From assembly GCA_037444775.1 (NCBI GenBank), contig JBBILU010000006.1:8899-72898 (forward strand): a stretch of 64,000 nucleotides of DNA, given 5' to 3'. The translations under genes were made by a program, and so were the position numbers. Source of the DNA: Candidatus Altimarinota bacterium. Lineage in GTDB: Bacteria > Patescibacteriota > Gracilibacteria > BD1-5 > UBA6164. The notes beneath the pieces were generated by a model, which saw nothing but the letters and a program-made list of their open reading frames with translations, did no database searches and was not told the origin of the DNA. Of this stretch, positions 1,595 through 59,591 are shown piece after piece (positions within the stretch are counted from its first letter, which is position 1; each line of letters opens with the position of its first letter).

Positions 1595-2677
1595 CTATAT
1601 CAACATTTCAACAGCCTCTTTATCTCTAACAAAGCTGAAAAGTGTATCTTTGTCTATAATTCATTTTTTGTGAAGAGCTATCAAATATCTATCCATAAGA
1701 ATCATTCACTTTTGTTGTCATATTTCAAGAACTGAATAAAGTTGTGGAGTTTTTCAAGTAACAATTAAGTTTTTTACCGCATCATCAGAAATCAGAATTT
1801 CACGAGCTGCAATTCTTCATTCTTTGTCACTTCTAGGAATAAGTCTTTGAGAAATAATTCAAACAAGGCTCATAGCGAGTTGCATTCTAATTTGTTTTTG
1901 TTGAGAACTTGGAAAAATATCTACAATTCTATCAACAGTTTGAACAGAATCATTTGTATGCAAAGTTGACAAAACTAAATGTCAAGTTTCAGCTAAAGTA
2001 AGAGCTGCTTTTATTGTTTCTGGATCTCTCATTTCTCAAACCATAATTACATCAGGATCTTCTCTCAAACAAGCTCTAATTGCTTCATCAAATCATTTAG
2101 TATGATTTCAAACCTCTCTTTGATTTACCAAAGAATTTTTTGAAACAAATGAAAATTCTACTGGGTCTTCTATTGTGATAATATGTTTTTTATAATTTTC
2201 ATTTATATAATTTATCATTGCTGCCAAGTTTGTAGATTTTCAGCTTCAAGTTGGTCAAGTAACAAGAATTAATCATTTTGATTTATTACACATATTTTTT
2301 ACTTGTTCTCAAAGTCCCAAACTATCCAAAGTTGGAATATCTTTTGGAATAATTCTAAGAGCAATGGAATAACCTTTTGAGTCTATATAGCAATTTACTC
2401 TGTATCTTGTTCCGGATTCAAATTCATAAGAAGTATCCAATTCAAAATTTTTTTCAAATTTTTCTAAGGCAATTTCCGAAGAAATTTCCAAAATAATTTG
2501 GATAATATTTTCTTTTGTAAGTTTTTCTAATTTTTCTCAATTTATTTCAGTCAAGTATGAAATATCTCAAGAATTATTTCTATAAATAGGAAAATGTCCA
2601 GTATTCAAGTGAATATCTGGAAGTTTATTTTCATCAGAAAATTTTAGTATAGAATAAATTAGTTCTTTAGCATTCAT
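1595..2677 (-). CDS. pilT: Type IV pilus retraction ATPase PilT
   Basis: 360 aa once TGA=Gly. Has Walker [31 protein letters not shown] and LSTLHTN. Length is divisible by 3 and ends with TAG (cta 1595-1597). Confidence 0.9.
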
Positions 2678-2861
2678 CTTTGCTTGTTTAATTTATATAT
2701 TTAACTAATTCTAGCATTTAAATAAAAAAAAGCAAAAATTTAATTTTGCTTTTTTATAATCCACATAAACTTATGAGAAAATTTATTTATATAAAAATTG
2801 ATTTATTAAATCTTTTTTATATAATCCAAAAGTCCTATTTTAATATTTAATTTTTTAAGTA

Positions 2862-4820
<1,959 letters not shown>

Positions 4821-4913
4821 TTTTTACAGTCTACTGTAAGAATTACTAAAAATATTTGCAATATACTGTAAAAAGTATAAAATTATTGCAAATATTTTTT
4901 TAATTTCAAAATT

Positions 4914-6134
4914 ATGATAGAAAAACTGTTACAAAAATCCCAAATCTTAATTTCAAACACAAATATAGATTTTATAAGAGATTTTTATTACAAAATAGAT
5001 TGGCAAAATAAACTCATTTGAATTGTTTGACAAAGATGAATTTGAAAAACTACTATTCTGCTTCAATACCTAAAAAAAGAACAACTTTCAAAAGCTATTT
5101 ATTTTTCTGCTGATAATATAATTCTGTTTGAAACTGGATTATACAAATTAGTGGAAGACTTATATTTTAATCACTCTATAAGAAACTTTTTTATTGATGA
5201 AATTCATAAATATAAAAATTGGAATCAAGAATTAAAAAATTTATACGATGATTTTCCTTATATAAAAATAGTTTTTTCTTGAAGTTCAAGCCTTGATTTA
5301 ATAAAATGAAAATATGATTTATCAAGAAGAGTTTTACTGTATAAAATGAAATGATTTTCTTTTAGGGAATATGTAAATAAAACAAAATCTTTGAATTTAA
5401 AAAGTGTTTCTTTAGAAGAAATTTTACAAAATCCTTTAGAAAAAGTAAATGAAATTTATTCTACTGTTTGAGATGAAATTTTATCAATATTTAATGCTTA
5501 TTTAAAAATTTGATATTACCCATTTTCTTTTGAATCAGATAAAGAAGAAAGTTTTTTTTCAAAATTATTTGAAGCTTTAGATAAACTTGTTTACGAAGAT
5601 ATTTCAAATTTTTATAAATTAGATACTTCAAAACTAGAAAATATAAAAAAAATTATCATATTTTTTTCTTTAGCAAAACCTTGAAAACTAAGTATAAATT
5701 CATTAAAAGATAAGCTTTGAGTTTCTTTTGATACAGTTGCGAATTATTTACAAATTTTAAATGATTCTTGAATTATAAAATCAATTTATGTAGATTGAAA
5801 TATTAGTAAAAGCATAAGAAAAGCAAAAAAAATATACATAGATAATTCAAATTTAGTTTATACTATTTCAAAAGAATTTTGATTTAACCCAGAGATAGGA
5901 ACTATACGAGAAATTTTCTTTGTTTCTAATTTTTCAAAAAATTTATTTTATTCAGAAATCTGAGATTTTTCATATAAATTGTGAGAAAAAAATTATTTTT
6001 TTGAGATTTGATGAAAAAATAAAACAAAAAAACAGTTAAAAAATGAAGAGAATTCTTTTATTGTTGCTGATTCTATTATTTTCCCAGAAGATAAGAAAAT
6101 TCCAATTTGGTTATTTGGATTTTTAGAAAATTAA
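4914..6134 (+). CDS. AAA+ ATPase of the COG1373 / DUF4143 type
   Basis: GQRGIGKTT Walker A (Gly as TGA), FIDEIHKY Walker B, C-terminal ...KIPIWLFGFLEN. Translated codon by codon with no TAA/TAG. Confidence 0.75.
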
Positions 6135-6352
6135 GCTTCATAATCAATCATTCTAATATAATCTTCTAAATTTTGATTTATAATATCATTAAGTTCTCTA
6201 ATAGTTTTTCATCAAACTGTAATTCAATCTTCAAGTAATAATTTTGTTTCTAAAAGAGAAATACTATTTCATTCTATTGCATTTGAATTGTAAGTATACA
6301 CTCAAAGTGATTTTCTCAATTCTAATTTTAAAATGCTTCCAGACTCAAACAA
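6131..6352 (-). pseudogene. Fic-family N-terminal fragment, no Fic core motif
   Basis: Reads ...LRKSLGVYTYNSNAIEGNSISLLETKLLLEDGITVGGKTIRELNDIIN..., typical of the region upstream of the HPFxxGNGR core. It stops at TAA before any core motif. No ATG; only TTG candidates at 6352 and 6319. Confidence 0.4.
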
Positions 6353-6830
6353 AGCAATGCTTTATTTGATGTGGATTTATGCAACTGGCTCAATGATAAG
6401 TTCAACATTTGTAAGTATTTATATTTTAAAAATTAATGATTCTTTTAATGATGTAATTTTTTTCAATATTATTTTTTTACTTTTACTTTTATTGGGTTTT
6501 CTATTGTATGATATTTGTTTTCACTTTTTCAAAAAAATATTAAAAGTTTGTACTATTTTGCTTATATATTTTTTATTGTATCATTTTTAGAACTTTTAAT
6601 ATTTGAAAATAATTCAATTTCTGCATATGTATATTGAGCTTTATATTGAGTTTGAAATGGATTGTTTTGGAATGCAGTTCATACTCAAGAATTAAATGGA
6701 TTTTAATAAACCCTATTTATAGAGTTTCAGAACATGTTTATGATTTATCTTTTTATTATTTTTGAGATATTCATCTTTTGATGATAAATCTTTGCTTAGT
6801 TTCTGACTTATTTTCACTTGATTAAGTTTT
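6333..6830 (+). pseudogene. Possible decayed membrane-transporter gene
   Basis: Hydrophobic ORF 6333-6590, then further hydrophobic stretches in two other frames (e.g. ...AYVYGALYGVGNGLFWNAV...). None forms a complete gene. Confidence 0.25.
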
Positions 6831-7038
6831 ATTTTTCTTATATGAAGTGTTTATTTATGGGAGAAATATGAAAAAATAGAAAAATAAGTTTTTTACAAAT
6901 AAAATTTTGAATTTTGATTTTAACAATTATGATGATTATGTCTTTTATAATTTGAATAAAGTATTTAGACAATGAAAGTATAAAATAATATAACTTATAA
7001 TGTCCATTATTTATGTTTATAATATTAACCAATAAATT

Positions 7039-8004
7039 ATGAAAAAAATCCCTCTTACTATTATAACTTGATTTTTGGGTTCAGGAAAAACTACTTTAAT
7101 AAATAGAATTTTAAAGGAAAACAAGGATTTAAAAATTGCTTTAATTGTAAATGAATTTTGAGATGTTTCTCTTGAAAGTCAATTTATTCAAAGTACAAAT
7201 GAAGAAATTGTTGAAATGTCTAATTGATGTATGTGTTGTGTTGTTAGAAAAGATATTATTGAAACTGTTGAAAATTTATTAGAAAAAAGACCAGATACAG
7301 ATTATATAATTGTTGAAGCAAGTTGACTTTCTGATCCTACTCCAATTGCTGAAACTTTTGCAATGAATTTGACAGATAAAATTAGACTTGATGCAGTTTT
7401 GTGTGTTGTTGATTCTCTTAACATTGAAAAAAACTTCCAAAATTACGAAATAGCAAGTAAACAAATTCTTTATAGTGATATGGTTTTAGTCTCAAAAACT
7501 AATTTTATTTCATCTGAAAAATATCAAGAAATTAAATTTTTTATTAAAAAATTTAATCCATTTATGAGAATTCTTCCTATAAATGAAAGTTTGGATTTGA
7601 AAATGATTCTTGATACAAATAAATTTGATTATTCTAAAGTTGAAGAATTAGAAAAAAAAGAAAAACATCATTGTCATGATGAACATTGTGATCACGAACA
7701 TCATCACCATCACGAAGAAATTGATGAAGTTTTTGTGAAAACTACAAAACCTTTGAATATGGAAAAATTCGCACTTTTTATAAAAAATTTGCCAGAAAAT
7801 ATTATAAGATGAAAAGGATTTATTTATCCAAATTGAGAAGATTATAAATGAAAAAAAATGCTTTTTCAATATGTTTGAGTTAGAATAGATACGGAATTTT
7901 CTGATTGGGATTCTAGTGAAACAAAACAAACTGCAATTGTTTTTATTTGAAAATGATTTGATAAAAAAGATATAGAAAAGAAAATTTTAGATTGTGAAAG
8001 TTAA
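7039..8004 (+). CDS. COG0523-family GTPase metallochaperone (CobW/YjiA/ZigA-like)
   Basis: GFLGSGKTTL P-loop, GCMCC metal motif, EASGLSDP, His-rich HHCHDEHCDHEHHHHH linker, CobW C-terminal domain. 321 aa. Confidence 0.85.
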
Positions 8005-8005
8005 A

Positions 8006-8043
8006 CCTCACCCCCTAGCCCCCTCTCCTTTAGGGGAGGGGGG
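8006..8043. repeat. Family A palindromic element, intergenic
   Basis: cctcaccccctagccccctctcctttaggggagggggg, two nt after the stop of the COG0523 gene. Confidence 0.8.
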
Positions 8044-8071
8044 AAATATATAAATTAAAATTTATTATTTT

Positions 8072-8913: not shown

Positions 8914-10194
8914 ATGTTTGCATTCCAATTATGAAGAGAATTTAAGCTGTCAATTGCTGAAATATTAGCAGTTTTTCCAGATATAAAAATAATAAATTTC
9001 TCAAAAGAAATTTTAATAGCTGATAATATTTTAAAAAAAGAAATTCTAGAAAAAATTAATTTTTTAGGTTGAACACAAAAAGTTATTGAGATACCCTACT
9101 CTACCATCTCCTTTGGAGTAGATAGTGTAGATAAGAATTTTGAAGAAATTATTTTAGAAAAAGCTAAAGAAAAAGAAGGAAAGTTTAATTACTGACTAAA
9201 TATTTTTTCAGACAAAAAAAATGTAGATTTGAAAAAAAATCTCTCAAAAATAAAAAAATTTCTTAGAGAAAATGATATAAATTCAAGATTTATAAATAAT
9301 GATTTCAAAAATCTTAATTCTGCTCAAATAATTTGAGAAAAGTTAGTAAAAAAAGAAACAGATTTTAATATTATAGAATTAGAAAATAATAATTATTTTT
9401 GAAAAACTATTTGGATTCAAGATATTAATTCTTATTCCAAAAGAGATTATGATAAAGAAAGAGATATGCAAATTTGAATGCTTCCTCCAAAACTAGCTCA
9501 AATTATGATAAATTTAGCATCTAATTTCCCCATACCCCCTAAAATAGGGGGAAAACAAAATTTTTATCCATCCCCTATTTTAGGGGTTTATAGGGGTAAT
9601 ATTATTTATGATCCTTTTGTTTGACTTGGAACGGTTTTACTTGAAGCAAAACTTATGTGATTTAAAAAACTTTTTTGAAGTGATTTGAATGAAAAAATGG
9701 TAGAAACTGCAAGTAAAAATTTGAATCCCCCTGCTTTCAAGATCCCCCTTATTAAGGAGAACAAGAATTATATTGTAAAAATTGAAAAACTTAATGCAAA
9801 ATTTATAAATGAAGCTAATTTTTGGAATGAAGTAAAAGATTGAACTATAGTTACAGAATGATATTTATGAGAAGTTATGACTCAAAGTAATATTAATTTA
9901 GATAGAATACAAAAGCAAAAAGAAGCTTTATTAAAAATTTATAAACCTTTTTTTGAAAATTTAAAAAAATGAAAGTTTTCTTGAATTATTGTAATTTCTT
10001 TTCCATTTTGGGAAATAAAATGAAAATTTGTTTATTTTGAAGAAATTTATGAGGTTTTAAAAGAATATTCTGAAATAATTAATTTTTTTCCAGAAAGTCT
10101 TGATTTGAAAACAAGTAAGTCTTGAAGTTTGTTTTATAAAAGGGATAAACAACTTGTATGAAGAGAGATTTTTAAGCTTAAAATAAAAAAATAA
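8914..10194 (+). CDS. SAM-dependent RNA methyltransferase (UPF0020 / Trm11-like)
   Basis: MLPPKLAQIMINLA ... IIYDPFVGLGTVLLEA ... FGSDL motifs. Frame verified at 9478, 9601 and 9721. Carries three or four in-frame repeat insertions. Confidence 0.6.
9094..9130. repeat. Family A-like palindromic element inside CDS
   Basis: ccctactctaccatctcctttggagtagatagtgtag, translated as IPYSTISFGVDSVD. Confidence 0.6.
9527..9599. mobile_element. Family B MITE-like element inserted in frame in the methyltransferase gene
   Basis: tccccataccccctaaaataggggg-N20-cccctattttaggggtttataggggtaa. Terminal inverted repeats are homologous to the element at 46489-46571. Translated SNFPIPPKIGGKQNFYPSPILGVYRGN, directly before the SAM motif. 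Confidence 0.75.
9727..9760. repeat. Degenerate GC-rich palindromic insertion inside CDS
   Basis: tccccctgctttcaagatcccccttattaaggaga, translated NPPAFKIPLIKE. Confidence 0.4.
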
Positions 10195-29201: not shown

Positions 29202-30635
29202 CTATAATATATCTTTTACACTAATTATTTCCATAACTGGAATTTCTTTATCTCATCTTTGAATATCATTAATTGCAATTAATTTATCTGTATAATTCAA
29301 TAAACCTTTTTTATTCAAAAATTTTATAGCATCTTCCAAAGTTTTGGTATAATTCTTTGAATCCCAAGATTCTAAATAAATCGGTTCTATTCAAAAAAAT
29401 GAATTGCAAATAGATACTGTTTTTTGGCTATTTGTAAATGCATATGTTTTTATTTCTGGTCTAAAAGCTGATGCAAGTCTAGCAAGTAATCAAGATTTTG
29501 TTAAAACTATAACAGCTTTTGCTCAAAGTTCTTCTCAAATAAAAATTCAACTTCTAATTAATAATTTTTTTTCTATATCTCTCTCATTTAATCAAGTAGC
29601 AACAAAACTAAAATGATCATATTTCATATTTTTTTCTGCTTCTTCTATAAGAGAAGTCATCATTTTTACACTTTCAACTGGAAATTTTCAAATTGCAGTT
29701 TCTCAAGAAAGCATTAGACAATCTGGTTTTTGAAGAGTTGCATTATAAACATCTGAACTTTCTGCTCTAGTAGGAAAAGGATTTTCTATCATTGTTTCAA
29801 GTAAGTGAGTTGCAACAACAACAATTTTCCCATTTTCTTTACATTTATCAACCATTTGTTTTTGATAAACAGCTAGTTTTTGAATCGGAACTTCTATTCA
29901 TAAATCTCATCTAGCTACCATAACTCAATCGGAAGCCATAATTATTTCATCTAAATTATCTATTGCTTCTTCATTTTCTACTTTTGAAATAATCTTTATA
30001 TTTTCTCATCAATTTGAATTTAATAAATTTCTCATTTCTTCTACATTTCAAGCATTTCTGATAAAAGAAGCTGCAATAAAAGAAAATCAATTTTTTATTC
30101 ACCATAAAATATCTTCTCTATCTTTTTCTGTAACTCAAGGAAGTCTCAATCTAACTCAAGGTAAATTTATATGTCTTCTTGATCAAATTAATGCTGAATT
30201 CAAAGCTTTTACTAAAACATAATCATCATATTTTTCAAGAACTTCTACATTTAAAAGTCCAGAGTCTAAAATTATATTTTTACCAATTTGAATATCTTCA
30301 GCCAAAAACGGATAATCACAAAATAAACTTCTTTCTCATTCTAAAGCTTCAAAATTAGAATAAATTTTAAAAATTTCTCAAGTTTCAAAATTTATTTTTT
30401 CTTTCACATCTCAAGTTCTAATTTCTGGTCATTTTGTATCTAAAAGTAAACTTAAATTTGTTAATCAAGCTGAATTTAATTCTTTTATTAAATTAGCTGT
30501 TTTCAAAGAATCCTCATGATTTGCATGAGAAAAATTAAATCTAATAATATTTACTCAAGCTTTGTACAAATCTATTAATTTTTCTCTAGAATTTGTAACT
30601 GGTCATAATGTAGCAATAATTTTAGTTCTCTTCAT
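29202..30635 (-). CDS. pyk: Pyruvate kinase
   Basis: MKRTKIIATLGP...NIIRFNFSHA...LLDTKGPEIRTG...MVARGDLGIEVP...MLSGETAIGKFP. 477 aa. Confidence 0.95.
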
Positions 30636-37078: not shown

Positions 37079-38842
37079 TTAAATCTCTCTAACCATATAT
37101 TCTCACTGCAAAATATATCATCTTTTTTCATAATATTGCCTAACTCAAACTCAAGAAATAACAGCTATTTTATTGAATCAAGCATTTTTAGCTATTTCTT
37201 CAGCTTTTGCAATAAGTTTTTTTCAAAAACCTATATGTTGACCAAAAGTTGAACCTTTTTCATTTATAGAAAGTTGGTCTCAAAAAGTATGAATTTCTCT
37301 AATCAAAGCTGCTCATTCTAACTCTGGAAAAATTTTTCCCTCACCCCCTAGCCCCCTCTCCTTTGGAGTAGAGGGGGAAATAGTATTCTGCGCCTTCTCC
37401 TCCAAAGGAGAAGGCTGGGATGAGGTGTCACTCGGCAATCTCAACCTTAACAAACTAAAAATAGTTCTATCAATTGGATCTTCAAAAGTCAAGAAAAATT
37501 CTTTTCAACCACTAGCTTCATATTCAAAAATATTTAAAACAGCATCACGAGGATTATTTTTTCAATCTTTGATTTCCCTATGACGAATATCAACAAGTTT
37601 TATTCATTCAGATTTCAACTTATCTTCAACAATTTGTCTAAGATTTGCCAAATGTGAACCTTCAAGAATTTCACTTGCTGGAATATCTCTATAAGTTCTG
37701 TTTATTCTAACATATTCAGGAATCATTGTTTCAAGTTTGCAAGTCAAATTTATTAATGTTTCATCATCATAAGCCTTAAATCATCAAGTTTTCCAAATTT
37801 CTGTTAATTCAGAATTATTTGTAACCATCATTGGATAAATTTTTAATTCATCAGGTCTGAAATCTGGATTTTCAAAAACTTCTTTCATAGATTTAATATC
37901 TAGTTCTGGATTAGAACCAAGCAAGTTTGGCATCATATGAGCAACAACTTTGAATCAAGCATTTTTCAACATTTTTGTTGCTTTAATACTTTCAGCATTT
38001 CAATGTCACCTTTTATTTAACTCATTTATTTCATCAATTGTAGTTTGATAACCAATTTCTACACGAGTTACTCAAAATCTTCTTAAATCTTTTATTTCTT
38101 CTTCATTAACCCAATCTGGACGAGTTTCAATTGCTATTCAAATAATTCTACATCTTGTAGTTTCATTTATTTTTTTTGCTTCTTCTAGAGAAGAACTCTC
38201 TTTCATTTTATAAGTTTCTTTTATTTTAAAACTTGCAAATTTATCATTTGAAAAATCTGTTTTTTCAATAAACTTACTCATTTCATCATAAGTATTAAAT
38301 GCATCATAAATTCATTTTATAAAACTTTCTTTATAGGATTTTGGATAAAAACTCCAAGTTCAACCAATAATTCTAACATCATTTTTTTCTATTTTGTGCC
38401 CTGTAATTTCCAAAGCTCTAAGTCTATTATGAATTTGCATTATCGGATCGAATTTATTTAATTCTGCTCTTTGTACTGCTGGTTCATTTGGAATATAACT
38501 TTTTGGTAATCCCTCAAAAGTTGGACAATAAACACATTTTCAAGGACAAGGAAAACTTTTTGTCAAAAGAGAAATCACAGTAACTCAAGACAAACTTCTA
38601 ACTCCTCTTTTTCTAAGAACTTTTGTCAAAACTAAATCCTCTTCTATTTCTCAATTATTTATCAAAAAATTATATCTTTCTATTAATTCTATACTAGAAA
38701 AAGGTTTTACTATTTTGTATTCTCCATAAATCTTGTTTTTTAGCTTATGAAAAACATCTTTAGTAAAAACTTTAGTATTAGATTTTATTTCATCATATGC
38801 ACTAAAAATTATTTTATCAATTATTTCATTTTTATTTATCAT
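37079..38842 (-). CDS. elp3: Elp3-like radical SAM / GNAT acetyltransferase
   Basis: CPGKCVYCP radical SAM cluster, IIGGTWSFY, VEIGYQTT, C-terminal GNAT (FGQHIGFGKKLIAKAEEIAK). 587 aa. A double palindromic element sits in frame before FPELEGAALIREIHTFG. Confidence 0.8.
37338..37427. repeat. Composite (two inverted units) family A element inside elp3
   Basis: ccctcaccccctagccccctctcctttggagtagaggggg-N13-cgccttctcctccaaaggagaaggctgggatgaggtg. Translated (minus strand) [31 protein letters not shown]. Confidence 0.9.
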
Positions 38843-42527: not shown

Positions 42528-44039
42528 ATGAAAAAACAAGAATTTTTAGAAAATATTACAGTAGAAAAATTAGTTTTTGGAGGAAAATGATTTGCTAAAC
42601 ATTCAGATTGAAGAATAATTTTTATTACATGAGGAGTTGTTCCATGAAGCATTGTTAACTTAAGAGTTCTAAAAAAGAAAAAAGATTATATAGAAACTCA
42701 AGTTCTTGATGTTGTGAAAAAATCCAATTTAGAAAAAGTACATCCAAATAATATTTATTGAGAATGTTGAGGTTGTAAACGGGTAAATATTCCTTATATA
42801 GAACAATTAAAAATTAAAGAAAATCAAGTAAAAGAATCTCTTAATTTACTTAAAAAATATAATGAAAAATATAATGAAAATTCTTTTTCATCAATTCTTC
42901 CATCTCCTTTAGTTGATTGATATAGAAATAAAGTGGAATTTTCTTTTGGAAAATTAATTAGTGCAAAAGCTGGAATTGAAGAACATTTTAATGTTTGATT
43001 TCACAAACAAGGAAGTTTTAGCCAAGTTCAAGATTTTGAAGGTTGTATTTTAATTGATGATTTAGCTAATAAAATTTATAAAAAAATTAAAGATTTTTCA
43101 AAAACTTCTTGATTACCTGTTTATGATCAAAAAACTTGAGAATGATTTTTTAGACATATATTGCTAAGAAGAACTTTTTTTGCAAATGAAATTATGATTG
43201 TTTTTAGTTTTAATGATAAATACCATACACAATCCATCCTTAGTAAAGAGGGAGTTAGAGGATATTCTGCCTTTATCCAAGAAATCAAATCTTTTTTTCT
43301 TGAATTAGCAAAAGAATTTAGTGAGATAAAATCTATTTATTTGTCTTATAATTCAAATAAAGCTGATATTGCAATTTGAGAGCTTGAATTAATTTATTGA
43401 GAAAAAACAATTAAAGAAAAACTTTTAGATTTAAATTTTGAGATTTCTCCAACAAGTTTTTTTCAAACAAATTCTTATTGAGCAGAACTTTTGTATTCAA
43501 AGGTTTTAGAAATAGCAGAGGCTCACCCTACCATCTCCTTAGAGGAGAGGGATAACACCCCCTCTCCACTGAGGAGAGGGCTGGGGTGAGGTTCTAAAAC
43601 TGTCCTAGATTTATATGGTTGAACTTGAACAATTTGAATGATTTTTGCTAAGGCTTGAGCTAAAAAAGTTTATTCTGTTGAACTTGTGAAATCAGCTTCA
43701 CAAGATTGACAAAATAATGCAAAGAAGAATAATTTAGAAAATATAGAATTTATTAATGCAAAAGTTGAAGATTTTTTAGAAGATTATTTAAAAACTTCTA
43801 AAAAAGCAGATTTGTTGATTATTGATCCACCAAGGGCTTGAATGCATCCAAGTGCTTTACCAAATATTTTGAAATTTGATTCAGAGCAAATAATTTATGT
43901 AAGCTGTAATCCAAGCACTTTAGCAAGAGATTTGGAATATATTTTAAAAAATAGCACTTACAAAATAGATAAAGTTATTCCAGTTGATATGTTCCCACAC
44001 ACTCATCATATAGAAACTATTGTAAGTTTGAGAAAGTAA
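42528..44039 (+). CDS. rlmD: 23S rRNA (uracil-5-)-methyltransferase RlmD/RumA family
   Basis: TRAM-like N-terminus, Cys cluster YGECGGC, FFQTN, VLDLYGGTGTIG SAM motif, IIDPPRAG, YVSCNPSTLARD. 503 aa. Confidence 0.9.
43521..43591. repeat. Composite family A element inside rlmD
   Basis: gctcaccctaccatctccttagaggagagggat-aaca-ccccctctccactgaggagagggctggggtgagg. Translated AHPTISLEERDNTPSPLRRGLGGG, immediately before the SAM-binding motif. Confidence 0.9.
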
Positions 44040-44073: not shown

Positions 44074-45309
44074 TTACTTCCCTAATTTTTCCTCAATTCT
44101 AATAAGTCTATTATATTTAGCAATCCTATCAGTTCTTGATAAACTTCCAGTTTTGATATATCAAGCATTTACAGCAACAGCTAAATCAGCTATAAAAGTA
44201 TCTTCTGTTTCTCAAGATCTATGAGAAATAATTGAAATCATATCATTTTCTTTTCCTAGATTAATTGCATCAAGAGTTTCACTCACTGTTCCTATTTGAT
44301 TTAATTTAATCAAAATTGCATTTGCAAGATTTTGTTCAATTCACATTTCAATTCTTTCAATATTTGTTACAAATAAATCATCTCAAACAATTTTTATTTT
44401 GTCTCAAAGTCTTTTTTGCATTTCTGCCCAACCTGCAAAATCATCTTCTGCCATTCAATCTTCTATTGAAAAAATTGGATAATTATTTACCATTTCTTCA
44501 TAATAATCACATAATTCACTACTTGTTAAAATTCTATTTTCTCATTTCAAATTATATTTTCCTTCTTCATAAAATTCACTACTAGCAACATCAAGAGAAA
44601 TTTTAATTTGATCTGTTGTATAACCAGCTTTTTTAATTGCTTCAATAACAGTTTCAATTGCATGTTTATTTGAATCAAAATTTGGTGCAAAACCTCATTC
44701 ATCTCAAACTGCAGTTACTTGTCATGATTTTTTCAGAATTGATTTCAAATTATGAAAAACTTCTGCTCACATTCTTACAGCTTCTTTTATATTTGGAGCT
44801 CAAACTGGAACAATCATAAACTCTTGAAAATCTAAAACATTATCAGCATGACTTCATCAATTTACAATATTCATTAAAGGAACTGGTAAAATATTTCATT
44901 TTCCCCCTCAAAGAAATTCAAAAATTTCTTTATTTTCAGATTTTGCACAAGCTACAACAAAAGCCATAGAACAACCCAAAATTGCATTTGCTCAAAATTT
45001 AGATTTATTTTTTGTTCAATCTAATGCAATTAAAAAATTATCAAATTCTCTAACATTAGAAAAACTTTTTCAAACAATTTCTTTTGCAATAATATTATTT
45101 ATATTAGAAACAGCCTTTAAAACTCATTTCCCTAAATATCTGGCTTTATCTCAATCTCTTAATTCAAGAGCTTCGTGCACTCAAGTACTTGCTCAACTTG
45201 GAACAATTGCACTTCCCTTCCCGTTTTCTAAATTCAAATCAACTTCTACAGTAGGATTTCATCTAGAATCTATAACTTCTCTAGCTTTTACAGTTACTAT
45301 TTTATACAT
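44074..45309 (-). CDS. eno: Enolase
   Basis: [15 protein letters not shown]...[16 protein letters not shown]...[18 protein letters not shown].... 411 aa. Confidence 0.95.
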
Positions 45310-51302: not shown

Positions 51303-53168
51303 ATGACCGAAATATTAAAAATATTAAAAACTTACAAATTAAATAAGAAATTATTTTTCTATTTAATTTTTTTTACAATAAGTTCTCAACTTCTTATAGT
51401 TAGTATACCTATCGTAACATCCAAAATAACAGGAGTTTTAGAATTCAAATGAGATTTAAAAGATTTTTATTTTTGGTGCTATATTCTGATTATTGTTTCA
51501 ATCTTTTTGTGTATTTCATTTTTTATGGAGGTTTTTTTTAGAGAATATCTTTGGCTAAAAACTTGGACAGAATTGATGAAAAGTTCAAGAAAAAAACTTT
51601 TTGAAAAAGATTATAAAACAATTATAGAAGTTTGAACTTGAAAACTTATTTCAAGACTAGCAAGATGAATTGATGCTCAAACTGATATTTTTACTGCTCT
51701 TGTAAGCATATTTTTCAATGCTGGACTTAGAATTATTTTACTTGTAATTGTATTTTTCTTTACTTCACCACTTTTTGCTTGGATAATAATTTTTTGAGCA
51801 ATTTTTCTTTGAATAGTTGTTTATTTTACAAGAAAATATGCAGAAAAATATCAAAAAGAAGAAGTTGAACTTTGGGAAAAAAGTTCAAGAGTTGAAGCAA
51901 AATTAATTATGAATAATCTTGATTTAAGAATTCTTTGAAAAGAAAAAAAAGAATTAGAGCTTTCAGATGAAGTTCTCTCAAAACTCCCAAATGTAGCAAG
52001 AAAAGCTGATATTCCAAGAAATGTTCAATGAAATTTACTTGAACTTATCACAAGAATAATAGTATTTTTTATTTACTTTGTTTTTGGTTTACAAATTTTA
52101 AAATGAGAACAAAGTATTGCAAATATGACTTTGATAATTATGAGTCTTTGGACTCTTTATCATCCTCTAAACAAAGCTATGGACGAGATTTGAAGAATTA
52201 GTCGTGTTTGGGATAAATATATGAAATTACAAAAGTTTTTGGATACTGAAATTGAAATAAAAAATTGAGCTAAAGTTTTTGAATACAAAAAATGAGAAAT
52301 TAAATTTGAAAATGTAGATTTTTTTTATAATAATGATAGAAAAATTTTTGAAAATTTAAATTTAAAAATAAAATCATGACAAAAAAATGCTTTTGTTTGA
52401 CATAGTTGATGAGGAAAATCAACAATTACAAAATTAATTTTGAGACTTTATGAAATAAGTTCTTGAAAACTTTTGGTTGATTGACAAAATATTAAAGACA
52501 TAAAAATAGAAACTTTTTATAATAACATTGCTTATTTATCTCAAGAACCAGCTGTTTTTGACTGAACTATTAGAGAGAATATGGAGTATGCTTTGAGTCA
52601 AAATTCCCAGTCTTCTCCTTTAGACCTCACCCCAACCCTCTCCTTTGGAGGAGAGGGAGAAAGAGAGAAATCTGTTATAATCCCATTTGTTGAAATTGAC
52701 AAGAATGTAGAGGTGTTTGGTAAAAACATCTCAAAAGATGATGAACAAGAAAAACAAATTTGGGAAGCTCTTAAAAAAGCCAAAATGGATGATTTGGTAA
52801 AATCTCTTCCAAAATGACTTGATACAGAAATTTGAGAAAAGTGAATAAAACTTAGTTGATGAGAAAAACAAAGACTTGCAATTGCAAGAGTTTTTCTAAA
52901 AAATCCTAAAATAATTATTCTTGATGAACCAACTTCTGCACTTGATAGTATAAGTGAAAATCATATTACAGAAAGTTTAAATGAACTTTTGAAATGAAAA
53001 ACTAGTATAATAATAGCTCACAGATTGCAGACAGTTATTAATTCTGATAAAATTTTTGTTATAGAAAATTGAAAAATAGAATCAGAATGAACTCATTTAG
53101 AGCTTTTGAAAAAATCAAAAATATATAAAACTTTGGTTGATTTGCAACATTGATGTTTAGTTGAGTAG
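51303..53168 (+). CDS. ABC exporter, fused TMD-NBD (MsbA-like)
   Basis: Six-helix TMD, then [39 protein letters not shown]. An upstream in-frame TTG at 51246 is an alternative start. Carries an in-frame insertion of about 45 aa, including a palindromic element, between the Q-loop region and the signature motif. Confidence 0.9.
52611..52667. repeat. Family A palindromic element inside the ABC exporter gene
   Basis: tcttctcctttagacctcaccccaaccctctcctttggaggagagggagaaagagag, translated [19 protein letters not shown]. Confidence 0.85.
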
Positions 53169-54194: not shown

Positions 54195-57100
54195 TTATTT
54201 TTTTAATTTTATTTCTACTTTCATCTCATCAAACTCAATTTCTTTTTCTAAATCAAAACTTTCTAAATTACCTTCAATTTTTGAAAGAGTTTCTGTTTCT
54301 ATATAATTTTCAAAGTTTTTTATAGCTTGTGCTATCCTTTCTCCAATTGGAAAAGAGTTAGAGAGAGGGCTTAATTGTATTTTTATTCTATCATCAACTT
54401 GATAATCAGCTTCTTTTCTAGCTTCTTGAATTGCTCTTACTAAATCTCTTGCTATTCATTCTTGCTGTAATTCTTCTGTTAAACTTGAATCCATAGCAAT
54501 TACCATTCAAAATCCAGCCTCAATTTCATATTGAGAATCTCCAGCCTCAAAAGCAAGTTCATATTCTCAAGATTCAAGAATGAAACTTGTGTTATTTTTT
54601 TTCTCCAAAGGAGAAGCTAGGTGAGGTATTCTAACTCTTCCTTCTTCCAATTCCTCAAAATTTCCTGCTTTTGCTTCTTGCAAAATATATTTTACATCTT
54701 GTCCAAACTTTGGACCAATAAGCCTTGCATTTGGTTTACAAATTTTTTTTGCAATAGAATCAGCATTTACTATAATTACTTCTTTTACATTTAATTCTTC
54801 TTTCAAAATATTTTTATAATATTCTTCCAGATTTTCTCAAATAGTAATTGATTTCAAAGGTTGTCTTACTTTAAGCTTGTGATTTACTCTCCAAGCCAAA
54901 CCAAGATTTATAAATTTTTGAGTTTTTGCCATTTGTTCACTCAAATCTTTATTAACAAAAGCACTCACATATTCAGGAAAAATATCTAGATGAACTGATT
55001 TTTTTCCAGTTAAATTTTTGTAAATATGATCTGCTAAGAATGGCATAAATGGAGCAATAATTTTTGAAACTTCCACCAAAACTGTATGAAGAGTATTGTA
55101 AGCTTGTATTTTGTCTCCATCATTTTCTGATTTCCAAAATCTTTTTCTAGATCTTCTAATATACCAATTTGTCAAATTATCCATAAATGCAGGAATATTT
55201 TTGGTTGCCTCATTGATTCTATAGCCATCTAATCACATTGAAACTTCTCAAATCAAAGTATGAAGTTCTCATAAAATCCATTTATCTAGTGGATTTTGAA
55301 GTGGAATTTTTGGGAAAGTGATAATTTGAGCATTTTTTACAGTTGGCATTTCAAGATGTGCATAGTCTAAACTCATTCACAAATACTTTTTGAAAAAAGG
55401 TCTAGCACTTCCAGCATGTCCAACAAACAAAATATTTTTGTCTCTATTTTTTAACAGAATTTCTTCAAAAGCTGTTTCAACTCTTGTTTGAAATTGTTCA
55501 TAATTTTCTATACTAGAATTTTTAAAAATTTTTCTCAAAGCTACTTTATCCTTCAAATCTACTCAATAAATTTCTGCTATTTCTTTATGACTCTTCCCTT
55601 CAAATTCAGCATAATTTTGTTCTTTAATTCCATCATTTATAAGAATTTCTCAAGTATATCATGAATTTTCAGCAATAATTTTTGCAGTTTCTAAAGCTCT
55701 ATCTAAAGGAGAACTTACTATCAAATCAAATGTAATTCCAGCAATTTTTGCATTTTGTCAAGATTTTTTTGCTTGTTCTTTTCATTTTTCAGTTAATTTA
55801 GGATTATCCATAGCTCCAGAAATTCCAGCAGACTCAACTGTCCACCTAGCATTACTTTCACTTTCAGCATGTCTTACAAAAAATATTTGTCATTTTGGAA
55901 CCTCAAAGTTATCAATATTTGCATAAGTAGTGAAAAAACTATAGGTATTCCACAAAGGCAAAATTACTTTTTTCACCACTTCTTCAACTCCAATTTCACT
56001 AAATCTCAAATCTTGAGCCTCAACAACTGGAGAATTCATTAAATAAAATCTCATTGCATCAGCACCATATTTATCAAAAATTATTTCAGGAGCTGGATAA
56101 TTTTGTAAACTTTTACTCATTTTTTTCCCATCTTCAGCCAAAACAATTCAGTTCACAATAGTGTTAAGTGTAGCAGGAGAATCAAAAAGTGCAGTAGAAA
56201 GAATAATCAAAGTATAAAACCAACCTCTGGTTTGGTCTAATCATTCAGCAATAAAATCTGCTGGGAAGCCCTCACCCCTTGCCCCTCTCCTTTGGAGTAG
56301 AGGGGAGTTTTTTTGCCCGTGCTCCTTCTTCTCCAAAGGAGAAGGTTGGGATGAGGGAAAAGCAAAAGGATAGTGTTTACTTGCATAAGGCATTGCTCAA
56401 CTTTCAAACCAACAATCAAGAACTTCAGGGATTCTTTTTAATTTCTCTCAAGTTTTTGGAGATTTCACAAAAATTTCATCAACAAAATGTTTATGCAAAT
56501 CAACTTCTTTTCAAGTTGCAGTGTAAAAATATTTATTGCCTCTTTTTTCAATCTGCCCAAAATCTTTATTTGCTTCATATAATTCTTCTACACTTCCAAT
56601 ACAAACTTCCTCAGTTTTGTCTTCATTTTGCCAAACTGGAATAGCTGAACCCCAATATCTATTTCTTGAAATATTCCAATCTCTTGCTTGTTCTAGCCAT
56701 TTCCCAAATCTTCATAATTTAATATTTTCTGGTGTCCAATTTGTTTTCAAATTATTTGCTACCATTTTATCTCTAATTTTTTCAACTGCCACATACCAAG
56801 CAGAAATAGCTCTATAAATTAATGGAGTACCACATCTCCAACAATGTGGATAAGAATGATCTATAGTCCCAATATGAAAAGAAAGCTTTTTCTCTTTTAG
56901 TTCAGAAACCACAAAATCATTGAAATCAAAAACAAATTCTCCATTATGTTCTAATAAATTATAAGTTTTTCCAGAATCATCAATATGAGCTACAAAACCT
57001 AAATCTTTTTCTTTTCAAATAATATTATCATCTTCTCAATAAGCTGGAGCAATATGAACAATTCCAGTTCAGCTTTCTGTTGTTACATGATGACCAATTA

Positions 57101-58082
57101 CTACAGAAAAAGAATTTTTTCAAAGTGCAATTCCATTTCATAAATCTGAATTCATTTCAGCCAATTGCAAATAAAAATCATCAAACAATGGCTCATAAGC
57201 AATTCCTACTAAACAAGTTCCAGGATATTCTCTCACAAGAGTATAATCCTCTTCTTTTTTGTAATAATTATTTACTCTTTCTTTAGCCAAAATATATGTG
57301 TCTCCAGTATTTTTATCAAGAATTTCCACATAAATTATATTTTCACCAACTGCAAGTCAAAGATTTGCATAAAGTGTCCAAGGAGTAGTGGTCCAAGCAA
57401 GAATATATTTATTTGGAGAATTTTTTATCTTAAATTTTATAGTAACAGCTTTAGATTGTTTGTCTTTGTATCCTTGATTTACTTCGAAGTTTGAAAGTGG
57501 AGTCGTACATCTTGGACAATAAGGAACAATTCTATTTCCTTCATAAATAAGCCCTTTATCATAAATACTTTTAAAAACCCACCAAACTGATTCCATAAAA
57601 TTGGTATCCATAGTTTTGTAATCATCTTCCATATCAACCCATCTTCACATTCTATTTACTGTTTTTTTCCATTCATCCACATAACCAAAAACATTTGCTC
57701 TACAAGTTTCATTGAAATCATGAACTCAAATTTTATTTTCTATATCATCTTTTCAGTTTATTTTCAACTTTTTTTCAACAATATTTTCAATAGGCAATCC
57801 ATGACAATCCCAACCAAATTTTCTGGTAACTTTTTTTCATTTCATAGTTTGGTATCTTGGAATTACATCTTTGATAGTTCCAGCTAAAATATGTCAATAA
57901 TGAGGAGTTCCAGTTGCAAATGGAGGACCATCATAAAAATTAAACTCATTTTCATTGCTTCTTGAATCCACAGATTCTTCAAAAATTTTTTCTTCTTGCC
58001 AAAACTTTAGCATTTCTTCTTCTAATTTTGGAAAGCTTTGTTTTGGGTTTACTTCTGGGAAGTTCTTAGTTATTTTTGTCAT
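54195..58082 (-). CDS. ileS: Isoleucyl-tRNA synthetase with internal histidine-phosphatase-like domain and three palindromic insertions
   Basis: 1295 codons. All track fragments at 57894, 57357, 57138, 56712, 55890, 54837 and 54567 share one frame. I translated 56712-55182 codon by codon and found no TAA/TAG. Motifs: [12 protein letters not shown] (HIGH), [47 protein letters not shown]. Confidence 0.95.
54601..54626. repeat. Family A element inside the ileS C-terminal region
   Basis: ttctccaaaggagaagctaggtgagg, translated (minus strand) PHLASPLEK. Confidence 0.7.
55305..55892 (-). other. Histidine phosphatase (PGAM-like) domain inserted in ileS, about residues 731-925
   Basis: [12 protein letters not shown] (RHG-type motif), [40 protein letters not shown]. 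Located between ...[20 protein letters not shown] and ...LDKWILGELHTL... of the IleRS anticodon-binding domain. Confidence 0.7.
56269..56357. repeat. Composite family A element inside the ileS catalytic core
   Basis: ccctcaccccttgcccctctcctttggagtagaggggag-N13-gctccttcttctccaaaggagaaggttgggatgaggg. Translated (minus strand) [30 protein letters not shown], between HYPFAF and FPADFIAEG. Confidence 0.9.
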
Positions 58083-58209: not shown

Positions 58210-58665
58210 TTATTCAATAAGTGCATTTATTTTTTGTTTAATTTCTTTTAGTTTACACTCCTCAATTCATCAAATATGAGATAACAATCTTTTTGAACTA
58301 TATAATTTTATTTGAGAAAGAATTAAAAAATTATTTTGTCATTTTATATTTCAAATATCATAATAAAAAAATCAATGTTTTACTTTTGTAGTACTAGGAA
58401 TTCACAAAAACATATCTTTATTAAATTTTTTAAGAATCAAAATTGGTCTACTAAAATCTTCATTTTTTCCATCTTGTTCAAATCAAATATTTATTCACAT
58501 AGAAATAAACCAAACTTGTCATTCTCTAAAGTAAGGAATTTTGGATTCACTTTTAGTATGAATTTTCTTTTTTTCATTATTCCATAAATCAAACATTTCT
58601 TCCTCTCATTTTGAAAAACTTTGTTTTGGGTTTACTTCTGGGAAGTTTTTAGTGTTTTTTGTCAT
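58210..58665 (-). CDS. MazF/PemK-family toxin with an IleRS-derived N-terminus
   Basis: ...REGQVWFISMGINIGFEQDGKNEDFSRPILILKKFNKDMFLGIPSTTKVKH...FLILSQIKLYSSKRLL fits the PemK/MazF pattern. The first 16 aa, [16 protein letters not shown], match IleRS, and weaker similarity continues to about residue 33. 151 aa. Confidence 0.7.
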
Positions 58666-58679
58666 GGTATTTTTGGTTA
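58619..58679. repeat. ileS 5' segment, copy 2
   Basis: ctttgttttgggtttacttctgggaagtttttagtgttttttgtcat is shared with copies 1 and 3. Confidence 0.85.
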
Positions 58680-59060
58680 ATATTGTATGTTAAAACTTAT
58701 AAATATACTTTCAAGGATATTATGCAATTCTTCTTTTTTTATATTTCCTTTAGCAACTCATATAGCGATATCTTCCATTTTTACAAAAAAAGAAGGTATG
58801 AAAATATTATTAATTTCAAGAAAAAGCCCTAAGCTTCAAATAGCAGTCCTTTTATTCCCATCATTAAAACAATGGAAATTTATAAGTCAGAAGAATAAAT
58901 GAGTTGCTTTTTCAACAATGTTTTTATAATAATCATCATTTTGTATATGTTGAAGTATTGAGTCTATTTGTTGCTTATCTTTTATTCCTGAAAGTCATCA
59001 AAATATTTCTAAAATATTATTATGCAGATTAATAACATCATGTACATCTAAATAATTCAT
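58677..59060 (-). CDS. doc: Doc (death-on-curing) Fic-fold toxin
   Basis: ...GGLSGIKDKQQIDSIL...ATHLFFGLINFHCFNDGNKRTA... carries the Fic/Doc core HxFxDGNKR. 127 aa. Confidence 0.8.
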
Positions 59061-59372: not shown

Positions 59373-59591
59373 TTATCATAAATATTCATTAATTAACTTT
59401 AAAGCTTCATTTTTATAATCATCTTCTTTTAATTCACTATACAAAGTTGCTTCTTGTAAAAATTTATCATATTCATCAAGTTGTTTTTGAGAATAATTCC
59501 CAGAGCTAAAAAGTTCTTCCAAAAGAGTATCAAGAGAAGCAAAATCATCTTTTTCAAGAGCTTCTTTTACTTGCAAAATCATTGTTTTCAT
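59373..59591 (-). CDS. Hypothetical small acidic protein
   Basis: 72 aa: MKTMILQVKEALEKDDFASLDTLLEELF.... First ORF after the T-box terminator. The N-terminal extension of track ORF 59376..59666 runs through that terminator and is rejected. Confidence 0.45.

Follow-up and report, generated by a model that had tools for sequence, protein, structure and literature searches.

A histidine phosphatase domain nested in the isoleucyl-tRNA synthetase of Gracilibacteria

Synthetases with extra domains are known already, and the added domains are best known from eukaryotes, where they give non-translational functions. The solved isoleucyl-tRNA synthetases (IleRS) of Priestia megaterium (IleRS2; 8C8U/8C9D), yeast (8WND) and T. 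thermophilus (1ILE) are of ordinary length (target lengths 813–1061) and share one scaffold, with HIGH and KMSKS motifs, CP1 editing motifs, Anticodon_1 and DUF5915. Here we analyse the ileS gene of a Candidatus Altimarinota bacterium of the Gracilibacteria, in a stretch of 64,000 nucleotides (contig JBBILU010000006.1 of assembly GCA_037444775.1, positions 8,899 to 72,898), hereafter the window. Its product is built on the same scaffold, but where the insert-free IleRS of other Gracilibacteria have a 7-residue linker it carries a 200-residue phosphatase. We confirm that a complete, in-frame branch-1 (PGAM-like) histidine phosphatase domain is nested in the middle of this IleRS.

A phosphatase domain within a code-25 IleRS

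Read on the minus strand with TAA and TAG as the sole stops, and translated under genetic code 25 (TGA as glycine), the window (24% GC) contains at 58112-54195 a single 1306-codon open frame with 31 in-frame TGA codons, which from the ATG at 58082 encodes a protein of 1295 residues. The HIGH motif is spelled HY[TGA]H, which identifies TGA as glycine and the code as code 25, the code of Gracilibacteria and Absconditabacteria. A table-11 reading breaks ileS into a string of short open reading frames (ORFs) and was dropped for code 25 after this test of the HIGH motif. The parts of the gene are as follows.

54195..58082, minus strand: ileS, type-2 isoleucyl-tRNA synthetase of 1295 residues, one open frame (TIGR00392), stop codon at 54195-54197
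55893..58082, minus strand: catalytic body, residues 1–730, with Rossmann fold, CP1 editing domain, KMSKS and stem-contact region (Pfam tRNA-synt_1, 462 bits)
57891..57902, minus strand: HIGH motif, H-Y-G-H, with Gly encoded by TGA
57375-57395, minus strand: editing motif WTTTPWT
57045-57071, minus strand: editing motif GTGIVHIAP
56109..56123, minus strand: KMSKS motif, residues 654–658
55293..55892, minus strand: nested histidine phosphatase (the 'site 5' insert), residues 731–930, delimited by alignment with insert-free relatives; His_Phos_1 at 55356-55886
55869..55874, minus strand: catalytic Arg737-His738, reading RHA where the family motif has 'RHG'; each of the two residues is kept in 100% of 65 site-5 inserts, and the phospho-acceptor is predicted to be His738
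55698..55700, minus strand: Arg795, second phosphate-binding Arg, 100% conserved in site-5, site-2 and valyl-tRNA synthetase (ValRS) inserts
55620..55622, minus strand: Glu821, predicted proton donor, in the E-x3-[GA]-x2-E-G segment; 98% conserved in site-5 inserts and present in 64/64 ValRS inserts
55416..55418, minus strand: His889 of VGHAGS, second catalytic His, 100% conserved in site-5 inserts
55401-55403, minus strand: Arg894, invariant in site-5 inserts
54849..55286, minus strand: anticodon-binding helical domain, residues 933–1078 (Pfam Anticodon_1, 104 bits)
54198..54812, minus strand: type-2 IleRS C-terminal domain DUF5915, residues 1091–1295 (Pfam PF19302, 99.5 bits)

Pfam His_Phos_1 (PF00300) matched residues 733–909, between tRNA-synt_1 and Anticodon_1, with 110.6 bits (E 9.7e-32; gathering threshold 21.7), and the excised segment scored 115.5 bits. 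This strong match bears out the original prediction, made from the letters alone, that a phosphatase block lies between the catalytic body and the anticodon-binding domain at 55305-55892, in a frame that is free of TAA and TAG and remains that of ileS on both sides. Residue 731 starts at base 55892 and residue 926 includes 55305, and an alignment of 121 IleRS extended the insert to 55293. In this alignment residues 731–930 take the place of a 7-residue linker (NLNSENI in the insert-free protein P0061), with the junctions ...NFE(V)PKG before the insert and (P)LDKWI... after it. Both the E-value of the hidden Markov model (HMM) and the 64 homologues of the insert that occupy this site in other assemblies exclude a chance match. 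Nor is the insert one of the canonical IleRS domains, the concern that it might be a catalogued part of the enzyme having been raised at the outset.

The catalytic motifs stand in the order first proposed (R737/H738, R795, E821, H889). The N-terminal motif VRHAESESN holds R737, H738 and N744, with Ala replacing the motif Gly in the window sequence, and Asn744 is 100% conserved across the 65 site-5 inserts. Mean identity among these inserts is 44%, compared with 69% for the IleRS core; invariance of the R/H/N/R/H set and 98% retention of the Glu at such divergence is therefore the signature of a working enzyme. Conservation of this kind shows a predicted catalytic competence of the insert, with purifying selection on its catalytic residues.

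To the extent that the fold can be judged from an AlphaFold2 model, which was built from the database copy P0016 (lacking 256 N-terminal residues and with TGA read as Trp), the insert folds confidently, with a predicted local distance difference test score of 80–94, in line with a self-folding domain set into a surface linker. Foldseek returned P. megaterium IleRS2 (8c9d) and yeast IleRS (8wnd) as the best matches to the scaffold of this model. The insert itself aligned to Entamoeba PSP (6m1x), CobC (6e4b), PhoE (1h2e) and Hydrogenobacter PspA (4ij5) with template-modelling (TM) scores of 0.72–0.77, and to the cofactor-dependent phosphoglycerate mutases (dPGM) and bisphosphoglycerate mutases with scores of 0.61–0.68. 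By sequence, the closest solved structures were PspA (4ij5), PhoE (1ebb/1h2e) and CobC (6e4b). The 'PGAM-like' label given to the domain at first thus holds for its branch-1 membership but not for a mutase: sequence and model agree in a probable assignment to the short phosphatase type (PspA/PhoE/CobC-like). Scores fell below the equivalog cutoffs of both PspA (61–66 bits versus 350) and CobC (79–84 bits versus 162.9), and the insert, although it resembles PspA and CobC, belongs to neither equivalog. Substrate specificity is not transferable from PhoE, PspA or CobC, because identity is 21–26% and no subfamily cutoff was reached.

Two further properties of the insert bear on its possible substrates. 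The proton-donor Glu and the second catalytic His are separated by 68 residues with three predicted helices, a cap-region spacing equal to that in the PhoE alignment, which argues for a small-molecule pocket. In addition, the median isoelectric point (pI) is 7.5 for site-5 inserts, 6.3 for ValRS inserts and 6.1 for free relatives; the basic charge that marks RNA binding was not seen in the site-5, ValRS or free members. PADLOC gave no defence-system match for the His_Phos insert or for a serine-hydrolase insert of related IleRS, and matched only a relative's NUDIX insert (candidate cluster PDC-S07, 47 bits).

The host enzyme is a functional-looking type-2 (eukaryote-like) IleRS, with 919.6 bits against the TIGR00392 ileS equivalog (cutoff 621.4) and with HYGH, KMSKS, WTTTPWT, GTGIVHIAP and DUF5915 all present. 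Against the exception model for the mupirocin-resistance IleRS MupA/MupB it scored 683–689 bits, below the cutoff of 1900.

Several lines of evidence indicate that the phosphatase is a long-term resident of this gene rather than a chimera or a recent import. GC content is 0.285 in the insert and 0.295 in ileS, TGA encodes 7 of the 14 glycines of the insert, matching usage in the host gene, and the nested architecture occurs in more than 60 independent assemblies (NCBI, JGI, ENA, Logan). The fusion-bearing loci L009 (59% GC) and L044 (38% GC) use the standard code with zero in-frame TGA, which makes the architecture independent of the reading given to TGA. A sequencing error hiding a stop or start between separate genes, which had been a concern, fails against the same nesting in these assemblies, standard-code genomes included; composition, TGA usage and the independent assemblies likewise rule out an assembly artefact or recent transfer.

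The same ileS exists in a database copy (P0016; NCBI GCA_964495215.1) in which TGA is called as Trp and an internal start is used, giving 1044 residues rather than 1295, and the W-for-G pattern at TGA-coded glycines recurs in many Logan and ENA relatives. Code-25 proteins miscalled in this way will yield distorted alignments and structure predictions, and code-25 genomes will conceal nested architectures if their genes are called with the wrong table.

Insertion sites, ValRS fusions and free-standing relatives

For the survey of IleRS we aligned the window protein with its 120 closest IleRS from a 5.8-billion protein collection (121 sequences). Searching this collection with the insert only recovered 15 distant free-standing proteins and zero fusions, which the word index misses, whereas the full-length query recovers the fusions. 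Five insertion sites were seen, numbered here on an insert-free IleRS.

Site 1, ~216–220: NUDIX, MutT/RppH-like
Site 2, ~507–510: second His_Phos
Site 3, ~538: YdeN-type serine hydrolase
Site 4, ~567–581: various inserts
Site 5, ~709–715: His_Phos of the window protein's kind

The site-5 insert, of about 190 residues and at an identical position, is present in 65/121 IleRS, the window protein included; in 49 of the 121 it is the only insert, and 53 have no insert at any site. The remaining IleRS hold combinations, up to NUDIX, His_Phos, serine hydrolase and a further His_Phos in one protein of 1734 residues, and architectures differ between close relatives in a mosaic fashion. All site-5 inserts form one clade and the site-2 copies a separate one. 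The possibility that the site-2 copy is a recent duplicate of the site-5 copy was rejected, the two being 24% identical, as distant as free-living enzymes, and in clades of their own. Core and insert distances correlate (r = 0.65). Together, these comparisons show an old insert that has been inherited mostly vertically within Gracilibacteria and their relatives, and the many close relatives that are without it show that it is dispensable for aminoacylation.

An exhaustive HMMER search of 1.84 billion representative proteins with the insert (the P0016 sub-sequence, with TGA read as Trp) extended this host range. The multi-domain hosts among the best 150 matches were all IleRS or ValRS, some with two to four His_Phos copies, and the other long proteins among them were free tandem doubles only. 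Indeed, 64 of the 120 closest ValRS carry His_Phos; they come from Moranbacteria, Uhrbacteria, Kaiserbacteria and Komeilibacteria (Parcubacteria). At the DNA level, two Moranbacteria ValRS genes and the gene for P0206 can be read with the standard code, none of them having a TGA in frame. The ValRS insert interrupts the zinc knuckle that lies between IPVW and DTWFSSG, in the segment that in IleRS holds sites 2 and 3, and it retains the His of the RH motif in 64/64 cases and the Arg in 61/64. These positions and clades suggest that the His_Phos family was recruited at least three times: at IleRS site 5, at IleRS site 2 and in ValRS.

The IleRS/ValRS-type proteins P0140, P0150, P0235, P0270 and P0271 carry two to four tandem His_Phos_1 domains between IPVW and DxWFESG, and eight free proteins of 360–520 residues are tandem doubles (P0145, P0152, P0166, P0183, P0214, P0224, P0226 and P0265). 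Tandem copies may be covalent versions of a dimeric enzyme.

Single free-standing members also exist. The ~200-residue proteins P0141, P0147, P0148 and P0153 nest within the site-5 clade (100/100 neighbour-joining bootstraps), and L007free and P0158 within the site-2 clade (98–99/100). We considered whether these are mis-called ileS fragments and rejected this, as tblastn with the flanks detected nothing of IleRS on either side. P0153 is on a contig of 40 kb, its surroundings likewise free of IleRS, and a GtrA/uridine-kinase-family gene starts 9 nt after it; L007free is located about 3 kb upstream of an ileS that has no insert. The existence of free-standing members implies that the domain can work alone and that insertion and free existence have interconverted.

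NCBI labels the fusions only as 'isoleucine--tRNA ligase' or 'class I tRNA ligase family protein', and full-text literature searches found no paper describing a phosphatase-in-synthetase architecture. The original view of this architecture as unfamiliar thus stands as far as the literature is concerned but needs qualifying, because it is common in the Gracilibacteria IleRS of public databases and has an analogue in Parcubacteria ValRS. The sequences are public and have automatic Pfam matches; the nesting of an intact histidine phosphatase in IleRS and ValRS of the Candidate Phyla Radiation (CPR), and IleRS as a multi-site hydrolase scaffold, appear undescribed.

Other inserts were seen in relatives. 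The standard-code metagenome-assembled genome L044 (Candidatus Gracilibacteria; 2101-7464) encodes a 1788-residue IleRS with a GNAT domain, two MuF_C-like domains and the site-5 His_Phos; the MuF_C-like domains are of about 150 residues and match phage MuF_C weakly (28 bits), and the GNAT and MuF_C-like inserts lie at sites 1 and 4. The Gracilibacteria IleRS P0031 has a 144-residue site-4 insert without a Pfam match.

The window protein has a site-4 insertion of its own, unrelated to the phosphatase.

56268..56357, minus strand: in-frame insertion in ileS, residues 576–605, one copy of a GC-rich palindromic repeat (GC 0.567 versus 0.295 for the gene)

Further copies lie at 37307-37457 (in the gene at 37079-38842), 43502-43620 (gene 42528-44039), 52594-52685 (ABC-transporter gene 51303-53168) and 7975-8060 (intergenic), with short cores at 9107-9122 and 54601-54616. 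The repeats have the form CCTCACCCC...CTCTCCTTTGGAG.AGAGGGG...CTCCAAAGGAGAAGG.TGGGATGAGG, and are composite palindromes of 50–60% GC, against 24% for the genome. Four copies interrupt protein-coding genes without shifting the frame, each adding about 25–30 residues. In being short palindromes that insert in frame into coding genes they recall, by their form, the Rickettsia palindromic elements; those elements belong to another phylum, whereas the window repeat is GC-rich in a 24% GC genome. To our knowledge, such in-frame palindromic repeats have not previously been noted in Gracilibacteria.

Gene neighbourhood and possible functions

Upstream of ileS, and parted from it by a set of toxin-like genes described below, lie two genes identified by Pfam.

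59851-60660, minus strand: CAP-domain gene
60773-61327, minus strand: free NUDIX hydrolase gene

This pair is the local remnant of a conserved, Gracilibacteria-specific cluster of genes for secreted CAP-domain proteins and nucleotide hydrolases that precedes ileS, in the same orientation, in other Gracilibacteria. In the complete oral genome HOT-871, whose ileS is insert-free (L088, 6272-13186), genes for NUDIX, HAD phosphatase, CAP, ITP/XTPase and MazG precede ileS on the same strand, with a gap of 7 nt between MazG and ileS. In 28_42_T64 (L089, 5413-13162) the order before ileS is CAP, CAP, MazG, CYTH; L002 (470-9072) has MazG-like, ITPase-like, serine-hydrolase and NUDIX genes followed by an ileS with NUDIX and His_Phos inserts; and L006 (1-1683) has CAP and CYTH. 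As a control set we used about 70 outgroup ileS loci among the matches listed by a genome-collection scan, which is not a census; none of these outgroup loci shows such a house-cleaning neighbourhood. The free NUDIX gene of the window (g52) was considered as a source of the NUDIX inserts and rejected, having no similarity to the insert HMM.

We tentatively favour a bifunctional protein, in which the synthetase carries what would be an autonomous small-molecule, probably nucleotide-type, phosphomonoesterase. The mechanism of histidine phosphatases is established for the family. By analogy His738 would attack the phosphomonoester while Arg737, Asn744, Arg795 and His889 hold the phosphate, Glu821 would protonate the leaving group, and the phospho-histidine would then be hydrolysed. 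The likeliest substrate class may be nucleotide-type (an NMP or a non-canonical nucleotide), which would set a phosphatase step beside the (d)NTP pyrophosphohydrolases MazG, ITP/XTPase, NUDIX and CYTH that lie upstream of ileS, NUDIX being also inserted in IleRS itself. IleRS, a large class Ia enzyme that tolerates insertions and is expressed constitutively, would then serve mainly as a carrier and so secure expression and stoichiometry where the genome is very small. The most economical guess at the substrate is one of nucleotide type, given the free orthologues, the retained cap, the non-basic charge and the linkage of ileS to house-cleaning enzymes and a HAD phosphatase; the uridine-kinase-family gene after free P0153 and the MutT/RppH-like character of the site-1 NUDIX insert fit the same theme. 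Of the two substrates first suggested, a nucleotide by-product and a phosphorylated inhibitor, the nucleotide thus has some circumstantial support from the gene neighbourhood.

Several observations weigh against this proposal. Every match to a characterized subfamily is far below its cutoff, and the synteny was found in only 5 Gracilibacteria loci, detected by single-seed phmmer; L007 and several other loci are without it, and the ValRS fusions of Moranbacteria adjoin tsaD, a house-cleaning cluster having been looked for there and not found. The companion GNAT and MuF_C-like inserts fit nucleotide sanitation poorly. A carrier also leaves unexplained why the hosts among the best 150 matches are IleRS and ValRS only and why the same family was recruited three or more times, and a function tied to tRNA or to the synthetase would account better for both facts, which is the main weakness of the proposal. 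These same two facts keep in view an unlikely but broader alternative, that the phosphatase is no passenger but belongs, with the NUDIX, esterase and GNAT inserts, to a set of repair or counter-toxin tools built into CPR class Ia synthetases. Such a set might, with a similarly low probability, strip a blocking phosphate or pyrophosphate from the tRNA CCA end, or a phosphate from the KMSKS loop, the enzyme first restoring its substrate or itself.

Toxin-like genes stand directly beside ileS. A MazF/PemK-like gene (58210-58665, minus strand; Pfam 24 bits) lies directly upstream. It opens with 72 nt that copy the start of ileS (58011-58082) at 90% identity, the similarity beginning exactly at the ATG, which suggests that a toxin cassette inserted at, or captured, the ileS start. 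A Doc/Fic-family toxin gene (58677-59060, minus strand; Pfam Fic 48 bits) and, upstream of it, a small 72-residue ORF (59373-59591, minus strand), possibly an antitoxin, follow; the three together part ileS from the CAP and NUDIX genes.

If the domain acts in translation, one route would be repair in cis, with a 3'-phosphate, a 2'-phosphate or a toxin-installed (pyro)phosphate stripped from the CCA end of tRNA-Ile (tRNA-Val for ValRS) before aminoacylation. Toxins of the toxSAS kind place pyrophosphate on the CCA end of tRNA, and a phosphatase joined to an enzyme of the tRNA 3' end has a precedent in the HD domain of the CCA-adding enzyme of E. coli. The restriction of multi-domain hosts to IleRS and ValRS among the best 150 representatives, the recruitment on at least three separate occasions into loops flanking the catalytic core, and companions suited to pyrophosphate (NUDIX, with RppH/YtkD-like matches) and ester bonds (serine hydrolase) all agree with such repair. 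The cap spacing of small-molecule phosphatases, a pI that is not basic and orthologues living away from any synthetase nevertheless make it improbable, and a branch-1 histidine phosphatase with activity on RNA ends is not known to us. We consider it more doubtful still that the insert is a protein phosphatase by which the synthetase reverses its own inactivating phosphorylation, for example of the KMSKS serine by HipA/HipT-like kinases. HipA phosphorylates GltX and HipT phosphorylates TrpS, each on a KMSKS-motif serine, PGAM5, Sts-1 and SixA are superfamily members able to act on proteins, and the closest characterized relatives (PspA, Entamoeba PSP) hydrolyse phosphoserine. The site-5 anchor is only about 75 residues past KMSKS, the fast gain and loss and faster evolution of the insert (44% versus 69% identity) resemble conflict-related modules, and both the Doc/Fic and MazF-like genes upstream of the window ileS and the GNAT and MuF_C-like inserts of a relative would suit such a conflict. 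However, no kinase partner was found, the insert has no PADLOC match, free-standing orthologues exist and the cap is kept, unlike in SixA and other protein phosphatases of the family, which are minimal; nor do we know of HipA/HipT-like toxins that phosphorylate IleRS or ValRS.

Two remaining readings appear very improbable. The insert might be the cell's own dPGM, a hidden glycolytic enzyme that would connect 3-phosphoglycerate with enolase and pyruvate kinase, given that enolase-like (44074-45309) and pyruvate-kinase-like (29202-30635) genes of the minus strand, assigned from N-terminal sequence only, lie in the window and that the archaeal short dPGM model NF038349 gives 79–84 bits. Phosphoglycerate mutase is reported to be missing from several shallow Parcubacteria clades, possibly through too-divergent forms (Jaffe et al. 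2020, PMC7304191), and Parcubacteria are the group in which the ValRS fusion occurs. Yet scores stay far below the dPGM cutoffs, those of the PRK models included (TIGR01258 40–45 bits versus 81.7; NF038349 79–84 versus 225), and dPGM chains match the fold more poorly and align only to its N-terminal half (query residues ~3–112). By inspection, at the mutase-specific substrate-binding positions in E. coli GpmA numbering, the insert has E-Q-N-Y for E-R-H-Y and H-A-G for H-G-N. It also has no C-terminal tail and runs straight into the anticodon-binding domain. With cutoffs unreached and both mutase-specific residues and tail absent, we rejected a dPGM identity; many Gracilibacteria, moreover, are entirely without glycolysis (PMC8406219). 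If the enolase and pyruvate-kinase assignments are correct, the Gracilibacterium of the window keeps lower glycolysis, unlike those glycolysis-free members of the literature. Least probable of all is a non-catalytic passenger, either a structural or tRNA-binding appendage or a neutral insertion remnant. The 53 of 121 relatives without an insert, its faster evolution and the tolerance of this genome for a selfish in-frame insertion in ileS (the site-4 repeat) would fit a passenger, but a catalytic set conserved over 65 IleRS and 64 ValRS inserts at about 44% mean identity is unexpected without selection for catalysis.

Comparison with known systems

If the phosphatase is the autonomous enzyme that we favour, it would be a clear natural example of essential proteins serving as carriers for metabolic enzymes in reduced genomes, and of enzyme functions overlooked by metabolic reconstructions of the CPR because the fusion genes are annotated only as tRNA ligases. 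If it instead acts on tRNA or on the synthetase, translation quality control or toxin resistance would gain a new layer. In either case a bacterial radiation with minimal genomes has time and again placed an intact phosphatase in the middle of two essential editing synthetases, where relatives have as many as four hydrolase domains, and the permissive sites of IleRS and ValRS at which this happened could serve protein engineering.

Among described phosphatases, PhoE of Bacillus (1EBB/1H2E), PspA of Hydrogenobacter (4IJ5), Entamoeba PSP (6M1X) and E. coli CobC (6E4B) share with the insert the fold, a length of about 190–200 residues, the cap spacing and the catalytic residues, but these enzymes are free-standing and 21–26% identical to a domain that in the window is nested in a synthetase. 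The bifunctional RNase H/acid phosphatase of the Rv2228c type (NF005567) is a case in which a branch-1 histidine phosphatase is fused to a nucleic-acid enzyme, and the insert scores 68–73 bits to its phosphatase half, below the cutoff of 326; that fusion is end to end and with a different partner, not nested. Among synthetases, NCBIfam NF040702 ('ileS_w_GNAT') catalogues an IleRS with an extra enzyme domain, an N-acetyltransferase, which is of another enzyme family; GNAT is absent from the window protein, whose 277 bits fall below the model's cutoff of 1999, whereas L044 has GNAT and His_Phos together. Finally, the CP1 editing domain of IleRS, ValRS and LeuRS is likewise a hydrolytic domain inserted in the body of class Ia synthetases, and shows that these enzymes grow by nested insertion. 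CP1 is universal, acts on an aminoacyl ester and is mechanistically integrated, whereas the His_Phos insert is lineage-restricted, a predicted phosphomonoesterase and dispensable.

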